From positions 1 to 14,769 of the forward strand of contig CBDFIJ010000001.1 in assembly GCA_965248055.1 (NCBI GenBank): a DNA stretch of 14,769 nucleotides, written 5' to 3'. Of the stretch, positions 2 to 13,803 are shown one piece after another. This DNA is from Candidatus Multivoradales bacterium. GTDB taxonomy: Bacteria > Acidobacteriota > Thermoanaerobaculia > Multivoradales > JAHEKO01. The notes under the pieces were generated by a model that was given only the letters and a program-made list of their open reading frames with translations, did no database searches and had not been told where the DNA came from. Positions within the stretch are counted from its first letter, which is position 1. Each line of letters begins with the position of its first letter. The position numbers and the translations under genes were made by a program.

Positions 2-3000
2 TTCTGTGACTGGCATACTTTCAACGACTGGTACAATTTCTTGGACAACATTATCTTGTTCCATTATCTCTACAGCACTTAAATCTGGAACTTCATCTGT
101 ATCTTCAAGGTCCTCTCCTGATTCCATGATGAAAGGCATCGCAGTTTCTTCTGGCTCTGTATATCTACAAACAAGGGCTTCTGGAGCAATGTCATCTGAG
201 TTGTTTACCTCTACACCTTCTTCACTGTAAGACTCTTGTTCTTGAACAATTTCCTCTGTAATCTTTGGCTGAGCTCCTTCATCATCAGGAGACACAACAT
301 GACCAATATATTCTTCTGCAGCTTGTTCAAAGATGGCAGATGCTGTAGCTTCTGGAATCATGGTAGAACCAATGTCTTCATCATTTGACATTGCTTGCTG
401 ATCTGAAGACATTCTATATGAAACAGCAGCATCCATGACAACTTGGTCAACATATTCTTTTGCCACTGAGCGAACAGCCTCTTCATCAGGATCTGTTTCT
501 GTGTTTCCCTGGTTAAGTGTGGAAGTGGTGTCTATGGCTTTATGTGTTTCTCCTTCTCTCTCCTCACTGAAACTGATGTCATCGGAGGGCAGCTCTCCGT
601 CTTGATCCGTCTTATTGCTATCTGCATCTGATACATCTTCATTTAAGGAATTTTCAAAGTACTTATCCTGCAGGTAAACTTCTCTTGAGTTCTCCACATC
701 TCCTGTTTCAACACCGTCTTGAATCCATTCCTTGGTGCTAGAAGACTCAACTTGAGAACTTGAGATGGCAACAACTTCTTCAGGAATTTCATTGGCATTT
801 GGAGGTACCATCTGTGTTTCTTCAATGACTGCATTGATACTGGAATCTGCTGCAGTTCTAACATCCTTGTCATTGCCAGATGTCTCACTCTGATCGTTCT
901 CTACCAGTTCTCCCCATTTTTCATAGGCTTCTTTTTGTCTGTTTTCCTCTTCTGTAAGTCCTTCACCAAACTCAGAAGATAAACTCTGTGTTTTAAACCA
1001 GCTTTCAACAACATGATCAGAATCCTTTCCCTCTGTTACTTGATAACTTCTTGATCCAGCACTACCCTCATTCTCTTCATCAGCTTCATCTATGTCTGAA
1101 ATCATGAATCTTTCATATGGTTCTACCACGAGGTAGGACTGACTGCTTGAACCATCTGATTTAGTCTCTTGCTCACTTATTGAAACATCCGTTATACTGG
1201 CATCTGTTGCTGTATGATCTTGGGTCCCAACTGTCTCAGATTCAATGTCATCAGCTGGAGTGCTGTCCTCAGCATCACTTTCTGGCTGTGGGATATCATC
1301 ATTCATAGAAACTGTAATGTCATACGAGCTACTGTTATCCATTACTCCATCTCCGAGGTCCTGTGATGTGTCTTGTCGACTACCATCATCGGTCATTTGG
1401 TTGCTGTCATAGATGGCACCTGCTGATTCTGAAGGAGAACTCTCTGTTACATTGACCTCCTGGCTGCTGATGGTAATGTCTTCTTGACTTTGAGCCTCTG
1501 AACCAATGTCAGCATTCTCATCTTTAGCATCCGATCCACCACTTTCATCGATGATATTATTTCCAGCTCTGATCTCATGTAGCTTAAAGTCTTCTTCTGT
1601 TTCTTCTTTTTGAATTGCAGACACTTCTGCAATTTCATTTTCATCTTCACTAGGTACATACTCAGTGGTGGTCATATCCTCAGCTAACATTCTGACAAGT
1701 ACTTTGTCTACCAGAGCTGATCTTGGAACCGTTTCTTCCTGGCTGAACTCTTCCTCATAAGCAGATTGCTGACTGTAAGGATCATCCTCCACATGATATA
1801 GGTCTCCCTCTGGCATGCTCTGTTCGGTACTGCTCACTTGCGCACAGATGACATCATCTCTTTGATCAATGTCAGTGTCTTGAACCATATCACTTGCCAG
1901 GGTTTCAGAGACAACATTTGTCACTTCAACGTTTTCCTGCTCCTCATCCTTATCACTTAGATCTTCCTCACCTGAGTCATCATTGATAACATCTTTGACC
2001 ATCAAATCTGGAAAGGTAGTGTCTGATGCTTCATGGTCCTCATCGTTCCACTTGGTAGGATAGGAGAATATTTTGGCATCTCCATCACTGATAGATTCAT
2101 TCCCCTCTTCATTTTCTGAGGTGATTTCTTCTTCTTTTTCATGCAAGTCTGTGTTCAACTTGCTGTGTACGATTTTTGCCTCTTCCAGGTTTGTCTCTTT
2201 CTCTGCCTCATCCTTTTCAGATACATCTTCTTCAGCAGAGTCATCATTGATAACCTCTTTGACCATCAAATCTGGGAAGGTAGTGTCTGATGTTTCATGG
2301 TCCTCATCAGTCCACTTGGTAGGATAGGAGAATATTTCGGCATCTCCATCATGAACTGATTCCTTCTCCTCTCCATTTTCTGAGGTAATTTCATCTTTCT
2401 CATAGAAGTCTGTGTTCAACTCGCTGTGTACAGGAGCACTGACAGCAGCAACTACCATTTCTTCTTCTACAATGTCAATCTCAACATTTTCTGGACGCTC
2501 CTCAACATCTCCTTCCAATCTATTCTCATTCATTCCAAGAATGAGCTCATTTGAAGGTGATTCATTGGCATCTGGAAGGGTTGATTCCCGAGCTTCGGAG
2601 TGGTCTAACTCATCGTTATGAACAGTTGTGTGCATGCTTGTGGCAATAGCTGGAGTGTTATCTGCATTAGGCATTTCTTCAGCAAAGCTTTCAGACACCA
2701 TGCTGGCATGCGACGTTTCAATGAATTTACTCTGTCCCTCATTATCGTACCCCCCATCCCAAGAATGTTTATCACTGTCTCTGTCTGACCCATCTTCATC
2801 ATTACCCATTAACTCAAGATGCTCATTCTCAACCTCATGCTCTCTCTCATGCTCTCTCTCATGGTCATGCAACTTGTTTGATCCCTCCCCCTCAAGGTCT
2901 CTATCTTCATCCAGATAAGTCTGCTGCTGAGGATAATCCTCAACAGCTTCATCTGCTTTAACCCTTGTTTCTTCATCCCCTGAATCTTCCTCTAAATCAC

Positions 3001-6000
3001 CCATCAACCCACCGACATACCCTCTCTGTTCATGTACAATGTCCTCTGAGATCATATCTACAACAACATTGCCCTGTTCAGCTCCAGACTCTGGATACTC
3101 TGATCCTTCTTCCCTATTATCAAGATCAAACATGTTAACCCCAGCTTCTGTTTTCTGGAAATTTTGGACACCAATATCGTCAGTAACCCCTGTATCATCC
3201 CTCCTTTCATTCCAGAGATCATTTTCTTCATATTGCACATCTGGGACTGCCTCTGAATCCCCAGAAAACTTTCCTACAGGGGTTTTGTGATCAACTTGAA
3301 CCTCTTCATTGCCTTGGGGTTTTAAGGAGGTTTCTTCAGACTGATCTACAATTTGGGCAACTTCATTAGCCTTATTTTCTTCATCTGACGTGGGATCTAT
3401 TCCTTCCTCAATTTCTTCATCAATTTCATCACCAAGAATATCATATGTTTTATTTGTAGCACTAGGGGCAATTTCTTCTTCAACCTTATCTACGCTATCC
3501 ATGACATCATCACCATGACCTGCATCAGACCCATTCTCTGTCTCATTTGAAACCAAAACGGTAACACCAGAAGCACTACTACCAAGAATGTCAATAGCCT
3601 CAGGACCAACAGAAAGTACGTCAGGGGTAAGATCAACTATCTCATCATGATCTTGGATGTCTTCTTCCCAGTCCTCATCTTCACTATAGCTTTCATGGCT
3701 ATGGGGGACCTTTTCATTCTCTCTTTCCAGCTGTACTGTTGAATCTATGCATACATCCTCAATACTTGTGACTGAAACATTTCTGAGTATTTCTTGAGAT
3801 GTCTCTGACTCCTCTGGTAGAGGTGACAAAGGTGTTCCTGTTGTTGCACATAGCTTGTTCATTGTCAAAGTGTCATTGACAGTATATTGCTCAGTGGACA
3901 GTTCAACCTTTATGTCATTTGGAGACCAATCATTCTCAATATCTATAAACCCATCTTCATCAGCTTGGATCTGATCTCTAGATTCCTCTTCATCACTTTC
4001 TGAGAATGGCTGATCCTCAAAAGTATCCTTGGCAACAATGGCATTTTCCTCATCATCGCTGCCTTGTGGAGAGGAATGTTCTGCATTGCTTATGTTCTGA
4101 AAGAAATCATCTTTCAAATCAGTCTTTGCAGAAAACAGGAGATCAGGTGTACTCATCATACTCTCACCTTCTTCAAAGGTTATATCGTCAGCAAGCATTG
4201 CAGCTACAACATTATCATCATCATCATCCTCATCTTCTTTAAACCCACTCTCCTCGTCTTCAATGACATCCCCATCATTTGCTTCCTCTCTAGAGAATTC
4301 ATCCTCTCTTAATGAAATGGCAACCTCTTCTGGAATATTTGCCTGATCATCCCTATGTTCAAGTATCATGTCTTCAGATAATATGTCTGCAACAACATTA
4401 CCTTTCTCTCCCAACACTTCATCGTCTTCTGTTCTTTCAACATGTTGGGAGTCTAACAGATTAAGCTCATCAGGAACTGGAGCATGAACTTCAGTACTGA
4501 GAACAAGAGAAATCTCATCTCCAAACAGATTATTATTGGCATGAGTGTCAGAGCTAATATCTCCATCACCTTCCACATCATCAAGATCAACCCTTTGTTC
4601 TTCATTTGGAATAATATCTGGCATTTCATCAACATCATAGTTCACAAGAACACTTGAACCAACATCAGCATTGTAGGCAAGAATATCTGCATTTACTTCT
4701 TCAACCATTTCATCAGTGATCATATCAGTAACGTTATTCCTTTCTTCTTCGTTTTTGGCAAGATTAATCCCATCACTTTCATTCTGGGGATTTAAGGATA
4801 CATCTAGAAGATCACTTGTCCCAAGGTCTGGTATTTCATTCATCTTGTTACTCATACCATCTGAGGAATCTAAAATGGAACCATCTGAAGGGGCTGTTCG
4901 TCTTGCTTCATTACACATATCATCAGCAAGCATTTCAGCAATGTGGTTACCTTCATTCCCTCTACCACTGACAAACATGTGTTCAGTTTCTTGGGCCTGG
5001 ATATAGACAGATGGATCAGGATTTGGTTCCATGATATCCTGCCTGTAATCAGATGTTGTACGATTGTACATACCAATGTCTTCTCTCTCATCCACCACTT
5101 CATCTTTGGATCGGTATGTGTGGACGTCTATTGCATTTTCCACCATACTCTTGGCAAGCATATCAGCCACATGATTAACATCTTCTTTGCTATCATCCAG
5201 GTCAGCCTCATCTTTTCCAGGATGTAGGCTACTTGTATTATCACTCTGAACAGGTGAAGCCTCCAGATCAGCATTCACTACAGGGGAACACATTTCTTCA
5301 ATGACAATGTCATCACCATCAACCTCATGATATGAAGTGACTGCTGTGTCCACGATGTTCATAGACTCATCTGCTTTCTGGTCACTGTGGAAAGGTGGAG
5401 TATCTATTTCGAAACTAGATACTGGTTCACCATGCTCTGCTTCAAAGATCATCTCATCAACATGATTTGGCTCACCTTTCATCTTCTCAAACAGACCTTC
5501 TGTTTCTTTTGCTTGGATGTAGACAAGAGGGTCAGGGTTTGGTTCCATAACCTCAGGCCTGTAAACAGGTCTGGGAGAATTGTATTCAGGAAAATCATCC
5601 TCATCATCAGAATATACCCTATCACCAGAATTGATTGTATTAATGTCAACTGCATTATCAACCATATTGCTCTTGAGAGTATCAACAATGTAGTTATTAT
5701 CTTGTCTGTTAAACAATTGAATATCAACATCCTGTCCCCTTGTTTCATCACTGCCTTCTGATCTCAAATCATCTGTGTCGTCATGAGGAAGGTGTGCCTC
5801 CTCAGATTCCTCTACAACAGGCACTTCTTCATCACCTGTCACTACTCCATCCCCACTTGTTATATCATCGATTTCAGGAGGAGAAGCAAACACATTTGAT
5901 ACTTCATGACCTTTGACCAATTCTTCTGTTACAATCTCTCTTTCTTCAACGCCACTATCTTCACCTAACTGATTTGCAACACTTTGATCATCTGGGAAAT

Positions 6001-8569
6001 CTTCTTCATTACCACTGATTACATCCATTTGTTCAGGTTCTTGATCTTCAGTAGGGAAAACATCATCTTCTTCAAAATCATCCTCATAGTTTACCTCAGC
6101 ATCAGACTGTCTATCCTCCAGATGGGAAAATCTTGCTGACAACTCTCTCTCATTCAGTTCTTGGCTGAATCTCCTATCATCTTCTTCTTCAGCCACACTT
6201 GATTCACTGAGAGAATTTCTTGGGGTCTTTGGGATGGATACACCATCCTCTTCCTCCTCCCCAGAGACACCATGCAATTCAGCAGGGACAGATTCAGTAT
6301 CTACTTGTTCACCCAAATGGATTTCATCCTTCTCTGATACGGGTACAAGATCATCATCGTGATGCGAAAGAACATCAAATGGTGGTGGATTCTGAACTTC
6401 TTCAAAAGGGCTCATCCCGAATGGATCAACATCAGTCTGATCCTCAGTTTTATTCAGTGCAGGATCCTGGGAATCATTTAAAGCACTGAAGGGATCATGG
6501 AGCTGTTCTTCATTCACCACACTAGTCTGTCCAATGAACTCCGGCATACCAAATGGATCTAGATCACTTTGATTATCTGGTGAGTTATCATGGGAACCAC
6601 CACCAAATGGATCCACTTTGTTTGGGTCTAAATTCTCTACATTTGCATCACTGCCTGCATTGAATTCTTGTAAAATGGACTCTCCAACAGACAATGACGT
6701 ACCATGAACATCTTCAGAATCAACCTCACCTTCGACAGTAAGATCTTCCACAGAGATATGGTCTGCAGAATCGGACTGAAGTTCAATATCAACTGCATCT
6801 TCAGTGACAGGCTCTTCACCAGGTAAGACACTCTCGTCATTAAATTCTACCTCTCCAGGTGAAGTTTGCCTCTGAGCACTTTCTAGTGCACTTGACTCAC
6901 CCACGTAGTGGTCTTCTGCAGGAGTACTGCCAATATTACCAGAAGGATCAACAGCTGATAATTCACTCATACTAACCATACCAAAGTCATCATCAAAACC
7001 TTCAGAAGTTTCCATAGCTTCACCTTCAACTTCCATTTCATCATCATAGGCAGACAATGACATACCATTAACATCTTCAGAATCAAGCTTACCTTCGACG
7101 GTAAGACCTTCCACAGAGATATGGTCTGAAGAATTGGACTGAAGTTCAATATCTAATGCATCTTCAGTGACAGACTTTTCACCAGGTAAGACATTCTCAT
7201 CATTAACTTCTACCTCTCCAGGTAAAGTTTGTCTCTGAGCACTTTCTAGTGCACTTGACTCACCCACGTAGTGGTCTTCTGCAGGAGTACTGCCAATATT
7301 ACCAGAAGGATCAACAGCTGATGATTCATTCATACTAACCATACCAAAGTCATCATCAAAACCGCCAGAAGTTTTCATAGCTTCACCTTCAACTTCAATT
7401 TGATCATCATTGGCAGATGGTGCTTGGACATCGAATGGGTACATACCAAAAGGGTCATCTGTATGAAATTGATCACTTGATTTTTGTGCAATCGTTTGAG
7501 ACAGAGAGAATGGGTCAGAATCATCAACTGGTGATTTAATGCCTACAACCTCAGGTTGTTCCTCATGGATGTCTTTGGATTCAGTAATGGTCAGACAAGG
7601 ATCTGAAATTGAAATTGAATTTTCATCTGCACTTGATGCTCCATCAGGTACTTGTGCTAAAGAATCACTAAAGCTAATGGAGGGGTCAGATTTTGTCATG
7701 GACAGATCATATTGGTCATTTAGGGAATCAGACATTAGATCATCTACACTTGCCTGGGATTCAAATTGTGAGGAGGAAGAATCTCCTCTGGTTGGATCCG
7801 GATTGTCTACAAAAGAAGGAAGGTCACTTGAAATTGAAATGGGGTCCAGGAATGAACCCAGCAGGACCCCTGTGGATTGGGCAGATGGGCTAACAGTAGA
7901 GTCTGCTGGCTCAGGGTTGTCTGGAGTGATAGGATCTAGATCCAGAAGGCTTGGAGAAGGTTCTGGATCATCCATAAAAGGGTTGCCTGTGGTAGGATTT
8001 GGATCTGATGTTGGAATCAATAGATTGTCATTATTTGAAAAGGGATCAGAATTCATCTGAAAAGGATTGGAAGAATTTAGGTTCGAGTCTGGTCCAGGAC
8101 TACTTCCAGCTGAAAATGGATCTAGAGATAAGCCAAATGGATCGTTGTTATCATCAATGCTCTGTGTATTGGAAGAATTTAAGTTTGAATCTGGTCTAGG
8201 AGTACTTTCGGCTGAAAATGGATCTAGAGATAAGCCAAATGGATCGTTGTTATCATCAATGCTCTGTGTATTGGAAGAATTTAAGTTTGAGTCTGGTCTA
8301 GGAGTACTTTCAGCTGAAAATGGATCTAGAGATAAGCCAAATGGATCGTTGTTAACATCAATGCTCTGTGCAGGGTCATGTACTTTGTTCATCGACTGGA
8401 ATAATGGGTCTAAAGAATCATCCCCACCCTCATCTACACTTCCTGTCATTACATTAAATGGATTCCCTCCCAGTAAATCAGTACTATCTGATCCCACAAA
8501 AGGATTAGCTGAACTTGATCCAGCTCCTAAATCTATTCCCACCAAGTCAGAAACCTGATCACTTGATTT
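2..8569 (-). CDS. Giant acidic, low-complexity open frame (2856 codons, incomplete at the window edge); PRUNE2/BMCC1-like disordered region; +1 frame relative to the DHHA2 part
   Basis: The frame opens after TAG at 8570-8572 (KSSDQVSDLVGIDLGAGSSSANPF...) and is still in the same phase at base 2 (...EIVPVVESMPVTE). I found no stop in the stretches I translated. The ORF track lists no stop-terminated ORF in this frame, which is consistent with it running off the edge. It is strongly D/E/S-rich, and all internal repeats have periods divisible by 3. The first in-frame ATG is at 8447-8449. Confidence 0.85.
1943..2431 (-). repeat. Coding duplication, offset 264 bp (copies ~1943-2170 and ~2207-2431; …IFSYPTKW[N/T]DEDHE.SDTTFPDLMVK.VINDDS)
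   Basis: GAGTCATCATTGATAAC occurs at 1974 and 2238. The offset drops to 261 at the far end, an in-frame 3-nt indel. Confidence 0.92.
4985..5700 (-). repeat. Older diverged coding duplication, offset ~516-519 bp (YR...MEPNPDP.VYIQA.ETE in both copies)
   Basis: TGGTTCCAT occurs at 5024 and 5540. The copies read DYRQDIMEPNPDPSVYIQAQETE and VYRPEVMEPNPDPLVYIQAKETE. Similarity continues to about 5180 and 5700. Confidence 0.8.
6688..7417 (-). repeat. Coding tandem duplication, 2 x 363 bp (121 aa), each copy containing GFDDDFGMVSM…DPSGNIGSTPAEDHYVGESSALESAQRQT
   Basis: CAGACAATGAC occurs at 6688 and 7051, FDDDF codons at 6983 and 7346 (offset 363), and there are long identical stretches. Confidence 0.95.
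8066..8370 (-). repeat. Coding tandem repeat, 3 x 102 bp (34 aa: TQSIDDNNDPFGLSLDPFSAESTPRPDSNLNSSN)
   Basis: ATTGGAAGAATTTA recurs at 8066, 8168 and 8270, and the units are nearly identical. Confidence 0.95.
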
Positions 8570-9059
8570 CTATCTTATCATTCCCACTATCAATCTCATG
8601 CAGACTTTCTGGGTTACTTCTTCCCCATTCATCAGGCATTACCTTGCCATTCTGTGGTTCTTCTTCAGCCATATCATTTGCATTATTCACATTGCTCGAC
8701 AGTTCCTCCACGTTCTCTTCAAGTCCATTTTCCCCATGCTCGTCATCTTCATCATGATCACCTTCACCAAGCGTTCTTAGAATTTCTCCTACGAGGGGTA
8801 ATACAACTTTTCTTGATGCTTTCCTGTTCTGTTGATCAAAGGCACTTAAATTTGAAACATTGGAGTCTATTCTCTCAAGATCTAACACAGACCCTTGCAG
8901 TCTTTCTTCCATCGTCTCCCTAAGGCTTTGATCCTCCGAGTAGATTGCTAGTTGTCTGGTGCCTTCAAGGTCAATTGTCATGATAATGTTCACATCCAGA
9001 AATCTATGCTCACAAAAGTTCTTCAGACTGGTTTCCAAGTCCTGCCTGTCCAAGACGTC
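8559..9059 (-). CDS. prune: 5' part of the large exon: C-terminal portion of the prune DHHA2 domain plus a ~75-aa acidic tail, ending at TGA 8559-8561
   Basis: Acceptor tcttctatttgtttgcag|GAC at 9060/9059. The MSSICLQ start given in the ORF track is intronic. The translation DVLDRQDLETSLKNFCEHRFLDVNIIMTI...RQLAIYS...LDLERI...AFDQQNRKASRKVVLPLVGEIL shows prune hallmarks (FC....DV...MTI, RQLAI, Q.N...SRK..LP). Confidence 0.9.
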   Translation of the reverse strand, partial: DVLDRQDLETSLKNFCEHRFLDVNIIMTIDLEGTRQLAIYSEDQSLRETMEERLQGSVLDLERIDSNVSNLSAFDQQNRKASRKVVLPLVGEILRTLGEGDHDEDDEHGENGLEENVEELSSNVNNANDMAEEEPQNGKVMPDEWGRSNPESLHEIDSGNDKIEIK

Positions 9060-10903
9060 CTGCAAACAAATAGAAGACATAAAACAGATAGGACTGTAAA
9101 TCTAATAATCCATTTCATAATACAGGCACAAAACAACAGTCCCAATTTCTATGATCTACATGGTTGTAAAATGTATGAGGAAATTAAATTTGCTAAATCA
9201 CATATATACAATTGGTTGGTGTATATTGTCATTTGATAGGCCTGCCTTCATCAGCTCAAGTTGGCCAAATAGCCCGCTATTTCTGATCCAGGAAATTAGC
9301 CAGATCACAAAATAACGGGCTTTTTGCTTTGGTAATCTTCCTAAGATATCTGTGGCTAGTTTGCAAAATAGCCCGCTATTTGACCTTCGTCTTCACCAGC
9401 TCGAAGACTCGCACTATGCGAGAACACTGAGCAAATTTCTCAAGCTAAAATCTCGAACTCGAGTTTCGATGTTGTCGTTGTTGAAGTTGATGGTGTTTCC
9501 ATCGTCATTGGATGATTTTCGAGCTGATTAAGACGCAATTTGTAACTTCTGGCTTATTTTTCCCGGATCACAAAATAGCAGGCTATTTGGCCAACTCGGG
9601 CTGATGTAGACAGACTTGCTAAGTTCCTTTATCCCCAGGAATATTGAAAAAGGAACAAATGAGATATATTTCATGCCAAAAGCTGAAAGAGATGTCAGAT
9701 TCATATTGTAAACAAATCTGATGGCATTCATATCAAGCCAACATTTACACCAGAGCTGCACTTTTCATGTTACTAACTGATTTTAGAATCACAATCCTGC
9801 ATGAAAACTATGGTAGCTATATGTATTGTTTGCCTTATACCATAAAATATGAAAAGGCATGTAAATGTATGTACAAATTATTTTTCCAAATGACGCCAAA
9901 ACTTAGAAAGTAATTTTTAGAATCAACATCATACATAGACGTCAGTGCAGAGATTTTCAGGAGAAATGAAATTCTAAACTGATCATCTTTGTTTCAATTT
10001 CAGCGTACATACAGTACATATCTTCCAAATTTAAACCTATCATACCAATGGCCCTAGGAAAGACACGTACATGTACACTGTACATATACAAGTCACATGA
10101 GCCTTAAGGTTCCCACAGCCTTAGAAAGTGTGTCAATACAATAGAAGGAAATCAATATACCCAGGCATATTTGAGTTTCCTTGCTCGCATGTTTATACAA
10201 CACCTGTCAAAACGCAATTAACTCTCATCAGTCTCATTGTATCACTGTGATATGTAATGAATCAATGTACAGACAGCACCTTAAATATATTCTTTACAAT
10301 GCAGGACATTAAAATGTATTTTAACAAACCTTCTACTTTCCAAATTTTACATTAGTACACATTATTCCAAGCACACAAATTTTTTGTAACTTGAGCAGTC
10401 ATTAAATATAGAGTACCGGTACAGTTCTTGTACAGAATACAAAAGTAGTTTTTTGCCTTTGCTTGTACTTGCACACATTGTACTCGCAAACATGTAGTCA
10501 TTTCAATATTCCGGTCAGATAGTACAAATTTAAGAGATCATATTGCTTGCTTTATTGGCTATGATCTCATTTTGTAAGTAGCATGATATGATTTCCTTAA
10601 AATGTTTGTACATGTACATGTATATGCTAGTCATGCTGGTCAATGAAGTTCATGAATATGTGGCAATTTTTATTTCTTCATTATTTTTTCTAAACAGAGT
10701 CACAGACCCTTCTTCATTCATCTCCTTTTTAATTTTACATTCAAATTCTCCAAATTTAATATTCACGGCATAATTGAACACGTAAAGGCAGATTTAAAAC
10801 AGGTTTAATACATTCACCCTGGAAATACTCTTGATTTATAAATATCTAAAAGGCGACTTCCATCTCCCTCATGACTCTACATGTATGTATGGCAGTGACT
10901 CAC
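9060..10903 (-). other. GT-AG intron (1844 nt, phase 0) of the prune gene
   Basis: Donor GTGAGT at 10903 and polypyrimidine-CAG acceptor at 9060. AT-rich and non-coding. Joining the flanking exons gives continuous DHHA2 homology (…TLPLQ|DVLDRQ…). Confidence 0.9.
9240..9615. mobile_element. MITE-like non-autonomous element with ~65-bp imperfect terminal inverted repeats and a nested inner inverted-repeat pair
   Basis: 9240-9304 (gcctgccttcatcagctcaagttggccaaatagcccgctatttctgatccaggaaattagccaga) aligns with the reverse complement of 9548-9615 (gtctgtctacatcagcccgagttggccaaatagcctgctattttgtgatccgggaaaaataagccaga). The element is richer in GC and CpG than the surrounding intron and has no coding capacity. 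I could not resolve a target-site duplication. Confidence 0.7.
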
Positions 10904-10998
10904 TTGAAGTGGTAACGTGACTGAGCTGAATCCTACTTTGCATGATGTACTCGATGTAGACTTGAAATCTTTCCTCAGCATCTGTGCAGTGGTCAGAC
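10904..10998 (-). CDS. prune: Internal coding exon (95 nt, phase 1 in / phase 0 out) of a prune-family exopolyphosphatase gene; start of DHHA2 domain
   Basis: The minus strand reads ttctgtttattttttcctgtag|GT CTG ACC ACT GCA CAG ATG CTG AGG AAA GAT TTC AAG ... CCA CTT CAA|gtgagt, with canonical acceptor and donor sites. It translates as (G)LTTAQMLRKDFKSTSSTSCKVGFSSVTLPLQ, closely matching my recollection of human PRUNE1 GLTTEQMLRKDQK...VKVAISAIYMDLE. It splices in phase 0 to the exon at 9059. Confidence 0.93.
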
Positions 10999-13803
10999 CT
11001 ACAGGAAAAAATAAACAGAAATGGAGAAAAGATGAGCGTCTTTGAAGAATAATAGTATTAGAGGGTTCACATATGAGTGTAGGTTATGAAGGTCAATTGA
11101 TAGTCATCTATGAAGGCTTCTTCAGATAGGCATGGTAAATGGTTGCAAAAAAGCAGCTGACCATGTTACATGTGAATAAATGGAACTGTGCACATACATG
11201 TACATGTACATTCATTAGGGATATTGCTTTCATCAACTTCACATTTAGTCCTCACTAATGCATGCTTGGATGCTTTCCATACATTTTCCTTCTAGCCAAA
11301 AATGGATGAAAATATGAGGTTAAATCAAAGTCCCAAAGCTGCAAAGTTCATGTTTGCTACCGCGCCGCCGGAATACATGAAGGCCAGCAACTTGGCAAAT
11401 GTTTCAAACTTGACTTGATTTTGTACTTAGGGATTGTGAATTCTTCCCAAAGTTCTATATCCTAGATGCATTCATACATGTACTGCTTATTTATATCAGT
11501 AATTATTATATATTTTGAAGAAGGAATCTGTAAAATGTCACTTTTAAAGCAAAGTGATAATGTGATTCATTTGTTTAAGATACATGTAGCACAAATTTCT
11601 CTAGCAATACTTCAGAATAATTTTCTATGCCATGAAGTTGCTAATACACATAGCTGCAATACTCCTTTGAAAGCAGGACAATTTTAGAAAATGACAGTTT
11701 TCAAGTATCAATTCAAAATTTCAAATACCACAAACTCTTATTCAGGAATGATGCAGCTTGTTCTTTATAAGAATTTACAGTGCTTGATACAGTACACAAA
11801 TATGAATGCACAAAGTCATTGCTTCCTTATCTGTAGTCAACCCAAATGTCCCAGAAGAATCATTAATGTGCAGTGTCAGGGCTACTATTCTACATTTAAC
11901 ATGGCCACTGATAAGCCTGGCTTAGCTTGCAGCAGACTTACAGTGACTCATGGATCACATTTCGATCTGGCGCTAATGTGAAGCGTTGCTCATATTGACC
12001 CTCCCTCCCCACCCTCGTACAATGAACATATGTAAGCCCTTCTATTGTCTGATAAGCATATATTTATAGATTTGAGATAAAAATGTGTAAACATATGTAC
12101 GGAAGTAATTCAGTAGTTAAACATTATTTTGTTCTTCTTTTAAAATGGTGTTGATAAATGAATTATTACTGGAATTTCCAGAGATTGCATGAGATCGATC
12201 TGGAGGGATTACCGGCCTACTCAGAAACGGAGCATATGTTTGATTGCAATATCAGGGATTTTTGTTAGATTTCCATAATTATGTTATATGTTGACATACA
12301 GTCCATCTAAAGTCTGAAGTCTCTTTGCAAAGGACATCTGAAAATCTATTCTTCATAGGGAACATCAAATGGGGCAATGCTATCAAATGAGTTTTAAGTT
12401 TATAATACACCCTGCACATGGAATGGGCGCAGGCATCCACATATAATTGATAAGTCTCATACTTTGCATACATGTAAATACAAAAGGCTACACCCTCTTT
12501 GACCAAAGGTCTCCGAGAAAGATAGCTCAGAAGACCAAAGGTCTGTCAAACTGAAATATTCCATTCTCTCATACCTTCTTACAACTTGCCATATGGTTCA
12601 CCAGACTCAAAGTTCTCAAACAGTAGGCTACATGGTCTACAATTCAGTTTCATAGATCTACAATCAGCTAGGATGATCTGAAACAAACTTCTTATAAATG
12701 CTATTTTTGGAACTATTTAGGCAGTAGTCATCCAACTACCAAGCACCTATACCTAAATAATATTTGTTTATCCCAGAAAAAAACGATCTAATAACAGATT
12801 ACACATTTACCCTACATTAAAGTTGGGGGTCCTTTTTCTATGCTTGAAAGCAGATGTGAAAGAAATACATCCTATATTACTTTCTCATGACCTGAAGAGT
12901 GTGACAATCATATCAAAACCTGTCACTTTTGATATTCGTTCATTTCCTTCCCAATAGGTTGATAGCAGTTTAAATAAACCTCAATTCCAGGCCACAGCCG
13001 GTTCATCGAGAGGATGACACTACAGAATACTATCTGTCAGTCGAAAATAGCAATGCAGCATAATTGGTCGGCTTAATGTATGTAGCAGCGTTACCAACAA
13101 AGCAAAACAAAATTGTTAGAGTTTACTTTCAAACATGACATCACAGTCTAATAAGGTTGATGAATGACATGACATATCTGAGAATATATTCTCACATTTA
13201 AATCAGTTTTCACAAACTTTTACCCATCCTTTTCTCTGATTTTTCTGCTTTTTCTCCAAGCAATTCCAAATTAAGCTTGTATTGCCCTTTATATATGTTG
13301 ATTGTTCACATTGGTGTTCATGTGTACATGACTACAAGTTTAATACGTGTAGAAAAACATGGCCTGTAAAGCCACAAATTAGCACCATGAATAGAATATA
13401 ATACAAAACTCTTGACTTTTGATTTGAAAATATTTGAAATGAGAATCAATGATGATGATTATTATTAACAGCATTTATATTGTAACAAATTTTGGTATTT
13501 ATCAGAGAAAAGATAAAAAATCTCATTCACTGGTATTAACCTATCATAAATCATACGCCTCTCAGTATGATATATTTTGAAGAAAATCTTAAAATTCTCT
13601 TTTGACTTGAATCTCTAATCCTGAGCATAAATTGTTTAGTATTTGATTTGTATTGTTTAGTACCATTGTACACAGATCCGTGTAATTTCTAACATTCAGC
13701 CAATTGTGGTCACAATGACAAATGCCTATGGAATGCAGACATGTGTTATGACGTAAACAGTCATAGTTTGATCAAATTATCTTGGCTAATATTTGTCTGT
13801 GAC

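Follow-up and report, generated by a model that had tools for sequence, protein, structure and literature searches.

The locus and its two frames

Contig CBDFIJ010000001.1 (14,769 nt; hereafter the window, meaning the whole stretch of DNA that was analyzed) belongs to the assembly GCA_965248055.1, which is recorded as Candidatus Multivoradales bacterium. On its minus strand, two long open frames meet at a frame break around position 8567. One is a stop-to-stop frame of 180 codons (8559..9101) that carries part of a DHHA2 domain, and the other is a stop-to-stop frame of 2856 codons (2..8569) that is still open at the window's end, a length far beyond chance. Our findings indicate that both frames belong to a single sea-urchin gene of PRUNE2-like architecture, that the normal gene has one continuous frame across this site, and that the break reflects one extra base in the contig rather than a recoding event. 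In addition, an internal splice donor at 8642 is used in this gene, and one locus may thereby produce at least two proteins that share both of their ends.

The assembly has four contigs. The largest measures 3.35 Mb and has 57% GC, whereas the other three, with lengths of 14.8, 16.7, and 28.4 kb, have 39-43% GC; the window is the entire 14.8-kb contig. The DHHA2 exon matches the Strongylocentrotus purpuratus “protein prune homolog 2” XP_011673218.1 (1619 aa; P0003). Similarly, the giant frame matches S. purpuratus LOC578539 isoform X4, XP_030828007.1 (4217 aa; P0005), as well as orthologues in Lytechinus variegatus (4161 aa) and L. pictus (4174 aa). Starting from the exon start at 9059, and with one base omitted at the break, 229 residues are 100% identical to XP_030828007.1, the break site falling at residue 164. 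Judged by these matches, the window is sea-urchin DNA carried inside a bacterial assembly, and its gene is a sea-urchin PRUNE2-like gene, either S. purpuratus LOC578539 itself or the orthologue of a very close relative.

The features of the gene in the window are listed below; a slash in a sequence marks a splice boundary.

10904..10999, minus strand: upstream coding exon or its coding part, with the first part of DHHA2 (GLTTAQMLRKDFKSTSSTSCKVGFSSVTLPLQ); matched by P0003 residues 227-258 in tblastn at 100% identity, the peptide also being in the list of open reading frames.
9060..10903, minus strand: intron between the two DHHA2 exons; the acceptor ...tttgtttgcag/GAC ends at 9060, and the fits of RNA contigs end at 9059.
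8643..9059, minus strand: exon common to both isoforms, with the C-terminal DHHA2 part and an acidic linker, ending ...EEPQNGK; from the Pfam DHHA2 match and RNA contigs.
8637..8642, minus strand: alternative 5' splice site GTAATG after AAG, which gives the codons Val-Met when unused; from RNA contig ends and protein junctions.
2..8642, minus strand: giant alternative coding segment, which extends the 9059-8643 exon past the 8642 donor; acidic, repeat-bearing, with no Pfam match, and running off the window; from open codons and alignment.
8570..8572, minus strand: TAG that bounds the giant frame on its upstream side in this contig; it lies upstream of the extra base and is out of frame there; from reading of the sequence.
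8567..8569, no strand assigned: TTT on the plus strand (AAA on the coding strand), site of the one extra base; other runs have one base fewer.
8559..8561, minus strand: TGA, stop codon of the DHHA2 frame in this contig alone and out of frame elsewhere; from the other data sets.
8066..8370, no strand assigned: in-frame tandem repeat of 102 nt x 3.0 in the giant segment; from repeat detection.
6688..7417, no strand assigned: in-frame tandem repeat of 363 nt x 2.0 in the giant segment; from repeat detection.

The initial annotation of this stretch, made from the letters alone, described the layout accurately. Direct reading of the minus strand at the break agrees with the sequence it gave (GAT AAG ATA GAA ATC AAG TGA TCA GGT), and both the TGA at which it ended the DHHA2 frame and the TAG that it placed upstream of the giant frame are present on that strand. 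The brief overlap that it noted before a long open +1 frame amounts to 11 bases shared by the two stop-to-stop frames, and the in-frame duplications that it reported in the giant frame were found as tandem repeats with units of 102 nt and 363 nt. Hand reading also located its donor-like AAG/GTAATG, starting at 8642, the CAG at 8557-8555, and an ATG at 8449-8447 in the giant frame.

Against Pfam, the 180-codon frame matches DHHA2 (E = 1.3e-07; 32.4 bits, with a cut-off of 27) over residues 12-106, which correspond to the C-terminal two thirds of the domain. The giant frame, which is acidic in composition, matched no Pfam family at E <= 0.01.

The presence of sea-urchin contigs in a public bacterial assembly extends to its annotation. 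In the public record, a prokaryote-style gene call of 173 aa (P0055, MSSICLQ...KIEIK) has been placed on the sea-urchin exon.

A single reading frame across the break

Positions 8380-9400 of the window were aligned to four public runs from three studies (X10, X13, X18, and X19), all in the form of Logan contigs. X18 and X19 are oligo-dT RNA runs from the same study, labelled as echinoderm metagenomes, and they diverge from the window by 3-6%. X10 and X13 had been guessed to be RNA but are unspliced, each with a single contig that runs from 8380 into the intron at 9269-9275, and they are treated here as DNA-like witnesses only. One letter is absent at 8567 in all four runs and in every contig that covers the site, at depths of 21.6 of 21.6 in X10, 15.9 of 15.9 in X13, 2.6 of 2.6 in X18, and 2.5 of 2.5 in X19.

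Protein models of the gene are continuous as well. Three of them span the break site, namely S. purpuratus XP_011673218.1 and XP_030828007.1 and L. pictus LOC129255418 X1, and none is interrupted there. Both S. purpuratus models read ...DKIESSDQVSDLVG..., or ...SGNDKIE-SSDQVSDLVGIDLG..., across the site, and the L. pictus model reads ...RGNVKIE-TSDHLMGIDPG.... A fourth model, from L. variegatus, starts just past the break site and is not counted among the spanning models.

The same conclusion is reached from the window itself. A tblastn search with P0003 returns two pieces, 9089-8568 and 8569-4880, which abut at residue 422, the pattern expected of a single-base shift. When one base is omitted, the frame runs from 9059 to the window's end with no stop remaining (3019 of 3019 codons open), and both S. 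purpuratus models contain the junction peptide without a mismatch. The segment 8642-8555 is conserved as protein between Strongylocentrotus and Lytechinus, and it is therefore coding. A scan of public metagenome and GTDB genome contigs for the site, with a pattern allowing two or three A's, gave 0 matches in a collection from which the window's own genome was possibly left out, and it thus added no independent witness.

These results favor the first of four explanations offered in the initial annotation, one extra A in GAAATC giving ...KIESSDQV..., since the base is missing from every run and the spanning models read ...KIESSDQV... or ...KIETSDH.... The annotation had called for reads to be inspected for AAA or AA and for orthologous loci to be compared, and it had stated that two A's or an uninterrupted orthologous frame would speak against its more exotic readings. 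Both were observed, with two A's in the four public runs and an uninterrupted frame in the L. pictus model. As read from these sequences, the TGA at 8561-8559 and the TAG at 8572-8570 are both out of frame in the normal gene; the extra base in AAA at 8567-8569 puts the TGA in frame and creates the apparent two-frame layout. Biologically, the gene has no such frame break; what the contig shows is an ordinary sequence flaw or a private variant. The supposed recoding switch between a short enzyme and a giant scaffold vanishes once other data for the same gene are compared, and it carries little biological weight.

An internal donor and two isoforms

The exon common to both isoforms is covered by RNA contigs at 8642-8936, 8907-9031, and 9002-9059, and it is identical to XP_030828007.1 from residue 261. 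At its upstream end, position 9059 is the exact limit of the fit for X18 record 21 and for X19 record 31, which carry another 669 and 228 letters, respectively, that are unmatched in the examined stretch. At its downstream end, X18 record 18 (depth 31.7) fits 8642-8936 and then continues with 27 loose letters, and X19 record 28 (depth 48.6) ends in the same place. By hand translation, the reverse complement of the loose letters of X18 reads AEALDTGSR in frame. The junction NGK/AEALDTGSR also occurs in P0004 (844 aa) and P0045 (845 aa), two unnamed protein predictions made on Logan contigs 3.2-3.3 kb long, where it reads ...NGK/AEALDTGSRLLPMSPF.... The 27-letter loose end has 0 matches in the window at up to 3 mismatches and 0 matches in all four assembly contigs at up to 4 substitutions; the acceptor exon therefore lies beyond the contig.

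The donor at 8642 is thus used, and both protein forms exist in the data. Residues 1-399 of P0004 correspond to residues 1-399 of P0005 (97.2% identity), and residues 399-843 correspond to residues 3771-4215 (97.1%). P0004 is equivalent to P0005 minus residues 400-3770, that is, 3371 residues, with the frame kept both ways. The giant frame of the window aligns to P0005 residues 424-3365, and about 405 residues of the removed segment lie beyond the window. Identity to this RefSeq isoform is 84.6% over 2987 columns, 176 of them gaps, in the giant segment, as against 100% over the first 229 residues.

Both forms carry the same domains at their ends. DHHA2 scores 75.5 bits on P0004 and 72.7 bits on P0005. 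DHH, which is located outside the window, scores 27.5 and 27.9 bits, just below the curated threshold of 28.1, and is considered marginal. The window corresponds to residues 261-3365 of P0005, a protein on which BNIP2 reaches 77.8 bits (cut-off 27) and CRAL_TRIO_2 reaches 82.6 bits (cut-off 23); P0004 and P0007 gave the same result for these two families.

Where the donor is not used, it is read as Val-Met, as in P0003, P0005, and P0007, and K-V-M is conserved in L. pictus. The internal GTAATG doubles as codons, and the constraint on it is therefore twofold, from splicing and from the protein sequence.

On the read-through side, low-depth RNA contigs lie on 8393-8648 and 8460-8627. No RNA contig has at least 31 letters on both sides of the 8642 donor; X19 record 27 has 24 and 29, and record 25 has only 6 beyond the donor. 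Because no RNA contig spans the donor in this sense, RNA read-through rests on the protein models and on conservation, and the RNA proof of read-through itself is weak.

Contig depth differs between the common exon and the read-through part (31.7 vs 2.6 in X18 and 48.6 vs 2.5 in X19), a measure that cannot rank parts of a gene. The depth hint that the short form dominates in the X18 and X19 samples was set aside on this ground. Two other hints were dropped. The lack of cover over the intron at 9080-9219 in X18 and X19 had been considered as a sign that the read-through contigs are mature mRNA, but absence of contig cover proves nothing; small differences between DNA and “RNA?” runs in the share of words, considered as a hint of a missing intron, were uninterpretable.

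In the mechanism that we propose, the exon starting at 9059 may be read past the donor at 8642 straight into the giant acidic segment, in a single frame. Use of the donor AAG/GTAATG would instead join this exon to a distant exon starting with AEALDTGSR and yield an 844-aa DHH-DHHA2-BNIP2-BCH protein. If the donor is ignored, GTAATG would be translated as Val-Met and approximately 3371 residues would be inserted between the same two ends, giving 4217 aa. One locus would in this way make at least two PRUNE2-like proteins with a shared enzyme-like N-terminus and a shared BCH scaffold C-terminus, differing by an optional giant disordered insert. The isoform choice is ordinary alternative splicing, of the alternative-donor or exitron kind. 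Of minor interest is an internal donor of sea-urchin PRUNE2-like genes that, when used, takes out 3371 codons in frame.

This outcome differs from the switch envisaged in the initial annotation, in which one locus would make both a PRUNE1-like enzyme and a PRUNE2-like giant product. The short form does not end at the TGA; it is the 844-aa DHH-DHHA2-BNIP2-BCH protein, which lacks the giant segment only. A product with DHH and DHHA2 only would come from nothing but the window's own broken version, if that version is real.

For S. purpuratus LOC578539, five current RefSeq isoforms are listed (X1-X5, 4216-4488 aa), XP_011673218.1 having been an earlier model of this gene, and the giant form is therefore already annotated. 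The 844-aa form is not among these five and, in the protein clusters examined, was present only as the Logan proteins P0004 and P0045; the S. purpuratus annotation in its current state may therefore lack it.

Other Logan proteins point to variation at the C-terminus. P0054 and P0056 (172 aa), which lie outside the window and cluster with LOC578539, are alternative C-terminal pieces ending ...SATESHGQLELSS, an end that they have in common with the Lytechinus models. The gene may therefore have a choice of 3' exons downstream of the BCH domain, as has been described in vertebrates.

Origin of the extra base

The normal gene has one frame, and we infer that the extra base in the AAA run is most likely a consensus error (probability about 0.68); under either an error or an allele, there is no recoding. 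An error is the most likely origin given the homopolymer position of the base and its absence from every other data set. As a short piece of host DNA in a bacterial assembly, the contig probably had low coverage, and consensus quality would be expected to be lowest there. Moreover, all other length differences between the window and the RefSeq model preserve the frame, which indicates selection on the giant frame.

Several points weigh against a consensus error and against the evidence from which it is argued. The witnesses are other public runs and not the assembly's own reads, so that a real allele in the sampled animal retains some probability. X10 and X13 agree in their 5 other letters and in their 3 gap letters and possibly represent one haplotype, and X18 and X19 come from one study; the independent witnesses are therefore fewer than four. 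Logan contigs drop rare variants. The run consists of only two to three bases, which is short for a typical homopolymer error, and the remaining 2856 codons of the giant frame contain no other frame error, indicating that the contig is not generally error-ridden. The RefSeq models are predictions, although none is shown as labelled “low quality.” Lastly, the RNA that supports donor use shows 9 other letters in 295; it belongs to a diverged relative or haplotype and not demonstrably to the window's species.

The chief alternative, which we regard as unlikely although worth serious consideration, is that the sampled animal really carried the extra base, as a private or rare allele. Such an allele would truncate the giant isoform only, since splicing of the short form removes the segment that holds the site; what remained of the giant protein would have DHH and DHHA2 alone and would end ...KIEIK, and the short BCH-bearing isoform would be untouched. 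The location of the site downstream of the 8642 donor is consistent with this reading, as is the cleanness of the rest of the 2856-codon frame. Sea-urchin haplotypes are also known here to vary by indels, for instance by a 2-nt difference in a (TA)n run at 9202, and repeat copy number varies within the giant exon. However, the extra base occurs in 0 of the 4 other runs and in 0 of the 3 spanning models, and both the frame-keeping character of all other indels and the low consensus quality expected of a short host fragment count against an allele.

If it were a genuine wild allele, it would be a natural isoform-specific knockout in which only the giant PRUNE2-like isoform (~4200 aa) is abolished. 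Read-through transcripts would then give a PRUNE1-like product with DHH and DHHA2 only, the 844-aa BCH-bearing isoform would remain intact, and carriers would provide a natural test of the role of the giant disordered segment.

Other readings of the break

A separate transcript from an internal promoter, starting within the giant exon at the ATG at 8449-8447 or nearby and encoding a giant product without the prune domain, is improbable, although it would be compatible with a consensus error. In its favor, the L. variegatus model LOC121410326 X1 (P0006, 4161 aa) begins with MGIDPG... just past the break, at about window position 8540, and lacks DHH and DHHA2. Distinct promoters have likewise been reported for the C-terminal-only forms of vertebrate PRUNE2/BMCC1 in the available text of two studies (PMC3327665, PMC2655648). 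However, no start was observed in the contigs, which cannot show starts; the window has Val where the L. variegatus model has Met; and an internal promoter is not needed to explain the break. The start of P0006 may be an annotation artefact or a hint of such a promoter.

Still less probable is a short intron or exitron that would restore the frame by joining 8642 to the TAG at 8570 (73 nt) or to the CAG at 8555 (88 nt), as proposed in the initial annotation. The donor half of this proposal stands, as the donor at 8642 is used in the RNA contig of X18; GT...AG ends are present, and the frame arithmetic works in this contig. The acceptor half does not stand. The RNA contig joins 8643 to an exon absent from the window, which is the sole partner to which donor use points, and neither joint is listed in any of the four runs, where contigs drop rare variants and a minor event would be possible. 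In addition, 8642-8555 is conserved as protein in L. pictus, and there is no polypyrimidine tract.

Programmed +1 ribosomal frameshifting at AAG-UGA-U, which would join the DHHA2 and giant frames in an antizyme-like layout, is refuted: only the arrangement in this contig speaks for it, where two long frames overlap by 3 codons around a stop, whereas its defining property, conservation of the break in relatives, is absent, none of the four runs or the three spanning models carrying the break and the TGA being out of frame in all of them.

Repeats and other variation

The giant segment also differs between sequences in its repeats. A 34-aa unit, NDPFGLSLDPFSA..., is present in three copies in the window and in two copies in S. 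purpuratus P0003, and repeat number therefore varies between haplotypes. Within the intron, the X10 and X13 contigs are two letters shorter in the (TA)n run at 9202-9208, which may represent an ordinary microsatellite difference or a second small consensus error.

A highly repeated element occupies approximately 9236-9394 of the intron. Its summed contig depth ranges from thousands to about 31,000 in X10 and X13 and from hundreds to 1,500 in the RNA runs, and many loose contig ends fall at 9236-9238 and 9282-9287. The element is probably a short interspersed repeat of the sea-urchin genome.

Comparison with known genes and systems

The closest counterpart is S. purpuratus LOC578539, which is the same gene or its orthologue; the window differs from it by the extra base at 8567-8569 and by repeat copy number. 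At the title and abstract level, no paper on this echinoderm PRUNE2 gene was found.

Antizyme +1 frameshifting resembles this locus only in local layout, and only in this contig, where a frame-0 stop is followed by a long +1 frame. It differs in that the break is not conserved and is absent from other data for the same gene, and the motif is not the same.

Exitrons, defined as coding introns inside protein-coding exons (Marquez et al. 2015, PMC4484396), offer a better comparison for the donor at 8642. The donor is embedded in coding sequence, the frame survives whether the optional part is kept or removed, and that part is disordered and rich in repeats. The differences are that 3371 codons are removed and that the acceptor is located outside the window; under the strict definition, an exitron also has its acceptor within the same annotated exon. 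An alternative 5' splice site, perhaps combined with exon skipping, may be the better description of the event. The features of an alternative 5' splice site are all present here: a donor in coding sequence, either used or read as codons, with the frame kept.

With respect to gene family, the defining traits of PRUNE2-like genes were found. DHHA2 follows DHH, and BNIP2 and BCH domains lie at the C-terminus, the DHH half being marginal and the BNIP2/BCH part being located on P0005. There is also a large, poorly conserved middle exon, with at least 8.6 kb open in the window and no Pfam family. Proteins with the order DHH-DHHA2-BNIP2-BCH and 770-1180 aa in length are common in invertebrates such as ticks and Saccoglossus, from which “prune homolog 2-like” BNIP2/BCH proteins are listed, and vertebrate PRUNE1 shows 38-43% identity over the N-terminal module. 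The label PRUNE2-like refers here to domain architecture, one-to-one orthology to vertebrate PRUNE2, as opposed to PRUNE1, being putative.

In vertebrate PRUNE2/BMCC1, as in the sea-urchin gene, an N-terminal DHH-DHHA2 “prune” module and a C-terminal BNIP2-homology and BCH (CRAL_TRIO_2) region are separated by one giant, fast-evolving middle exon; the available text of PMC2655648 describes human PRUNE2 exon 8 as 6598 bp long, encoding 2199 aa. Several isoforms are also made there. They include the N-terminal-only BMCC1-2, formed from the first six exons with an extended exon 6, and the C-terminal-only BMCC1-3, BMCC1-4/BNIPXL, and Bmcc1s, which arise through alternative splicing and alternative promoters (PMC2655648, PMC3327665). 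The sea-urchin short form differs in that it keeps both ends and drops the middle, a form that goes unmentioned in the available text of PMC3327665 and PMC2655648, and the giant sea-urchin segment has no detectable family match. These findings indicate that echinoderms, too, have the PRUNE2 architecture, in which the two ends are conserved and a giant disordered middle is optional; this could help to ask what purpose the middle serves.

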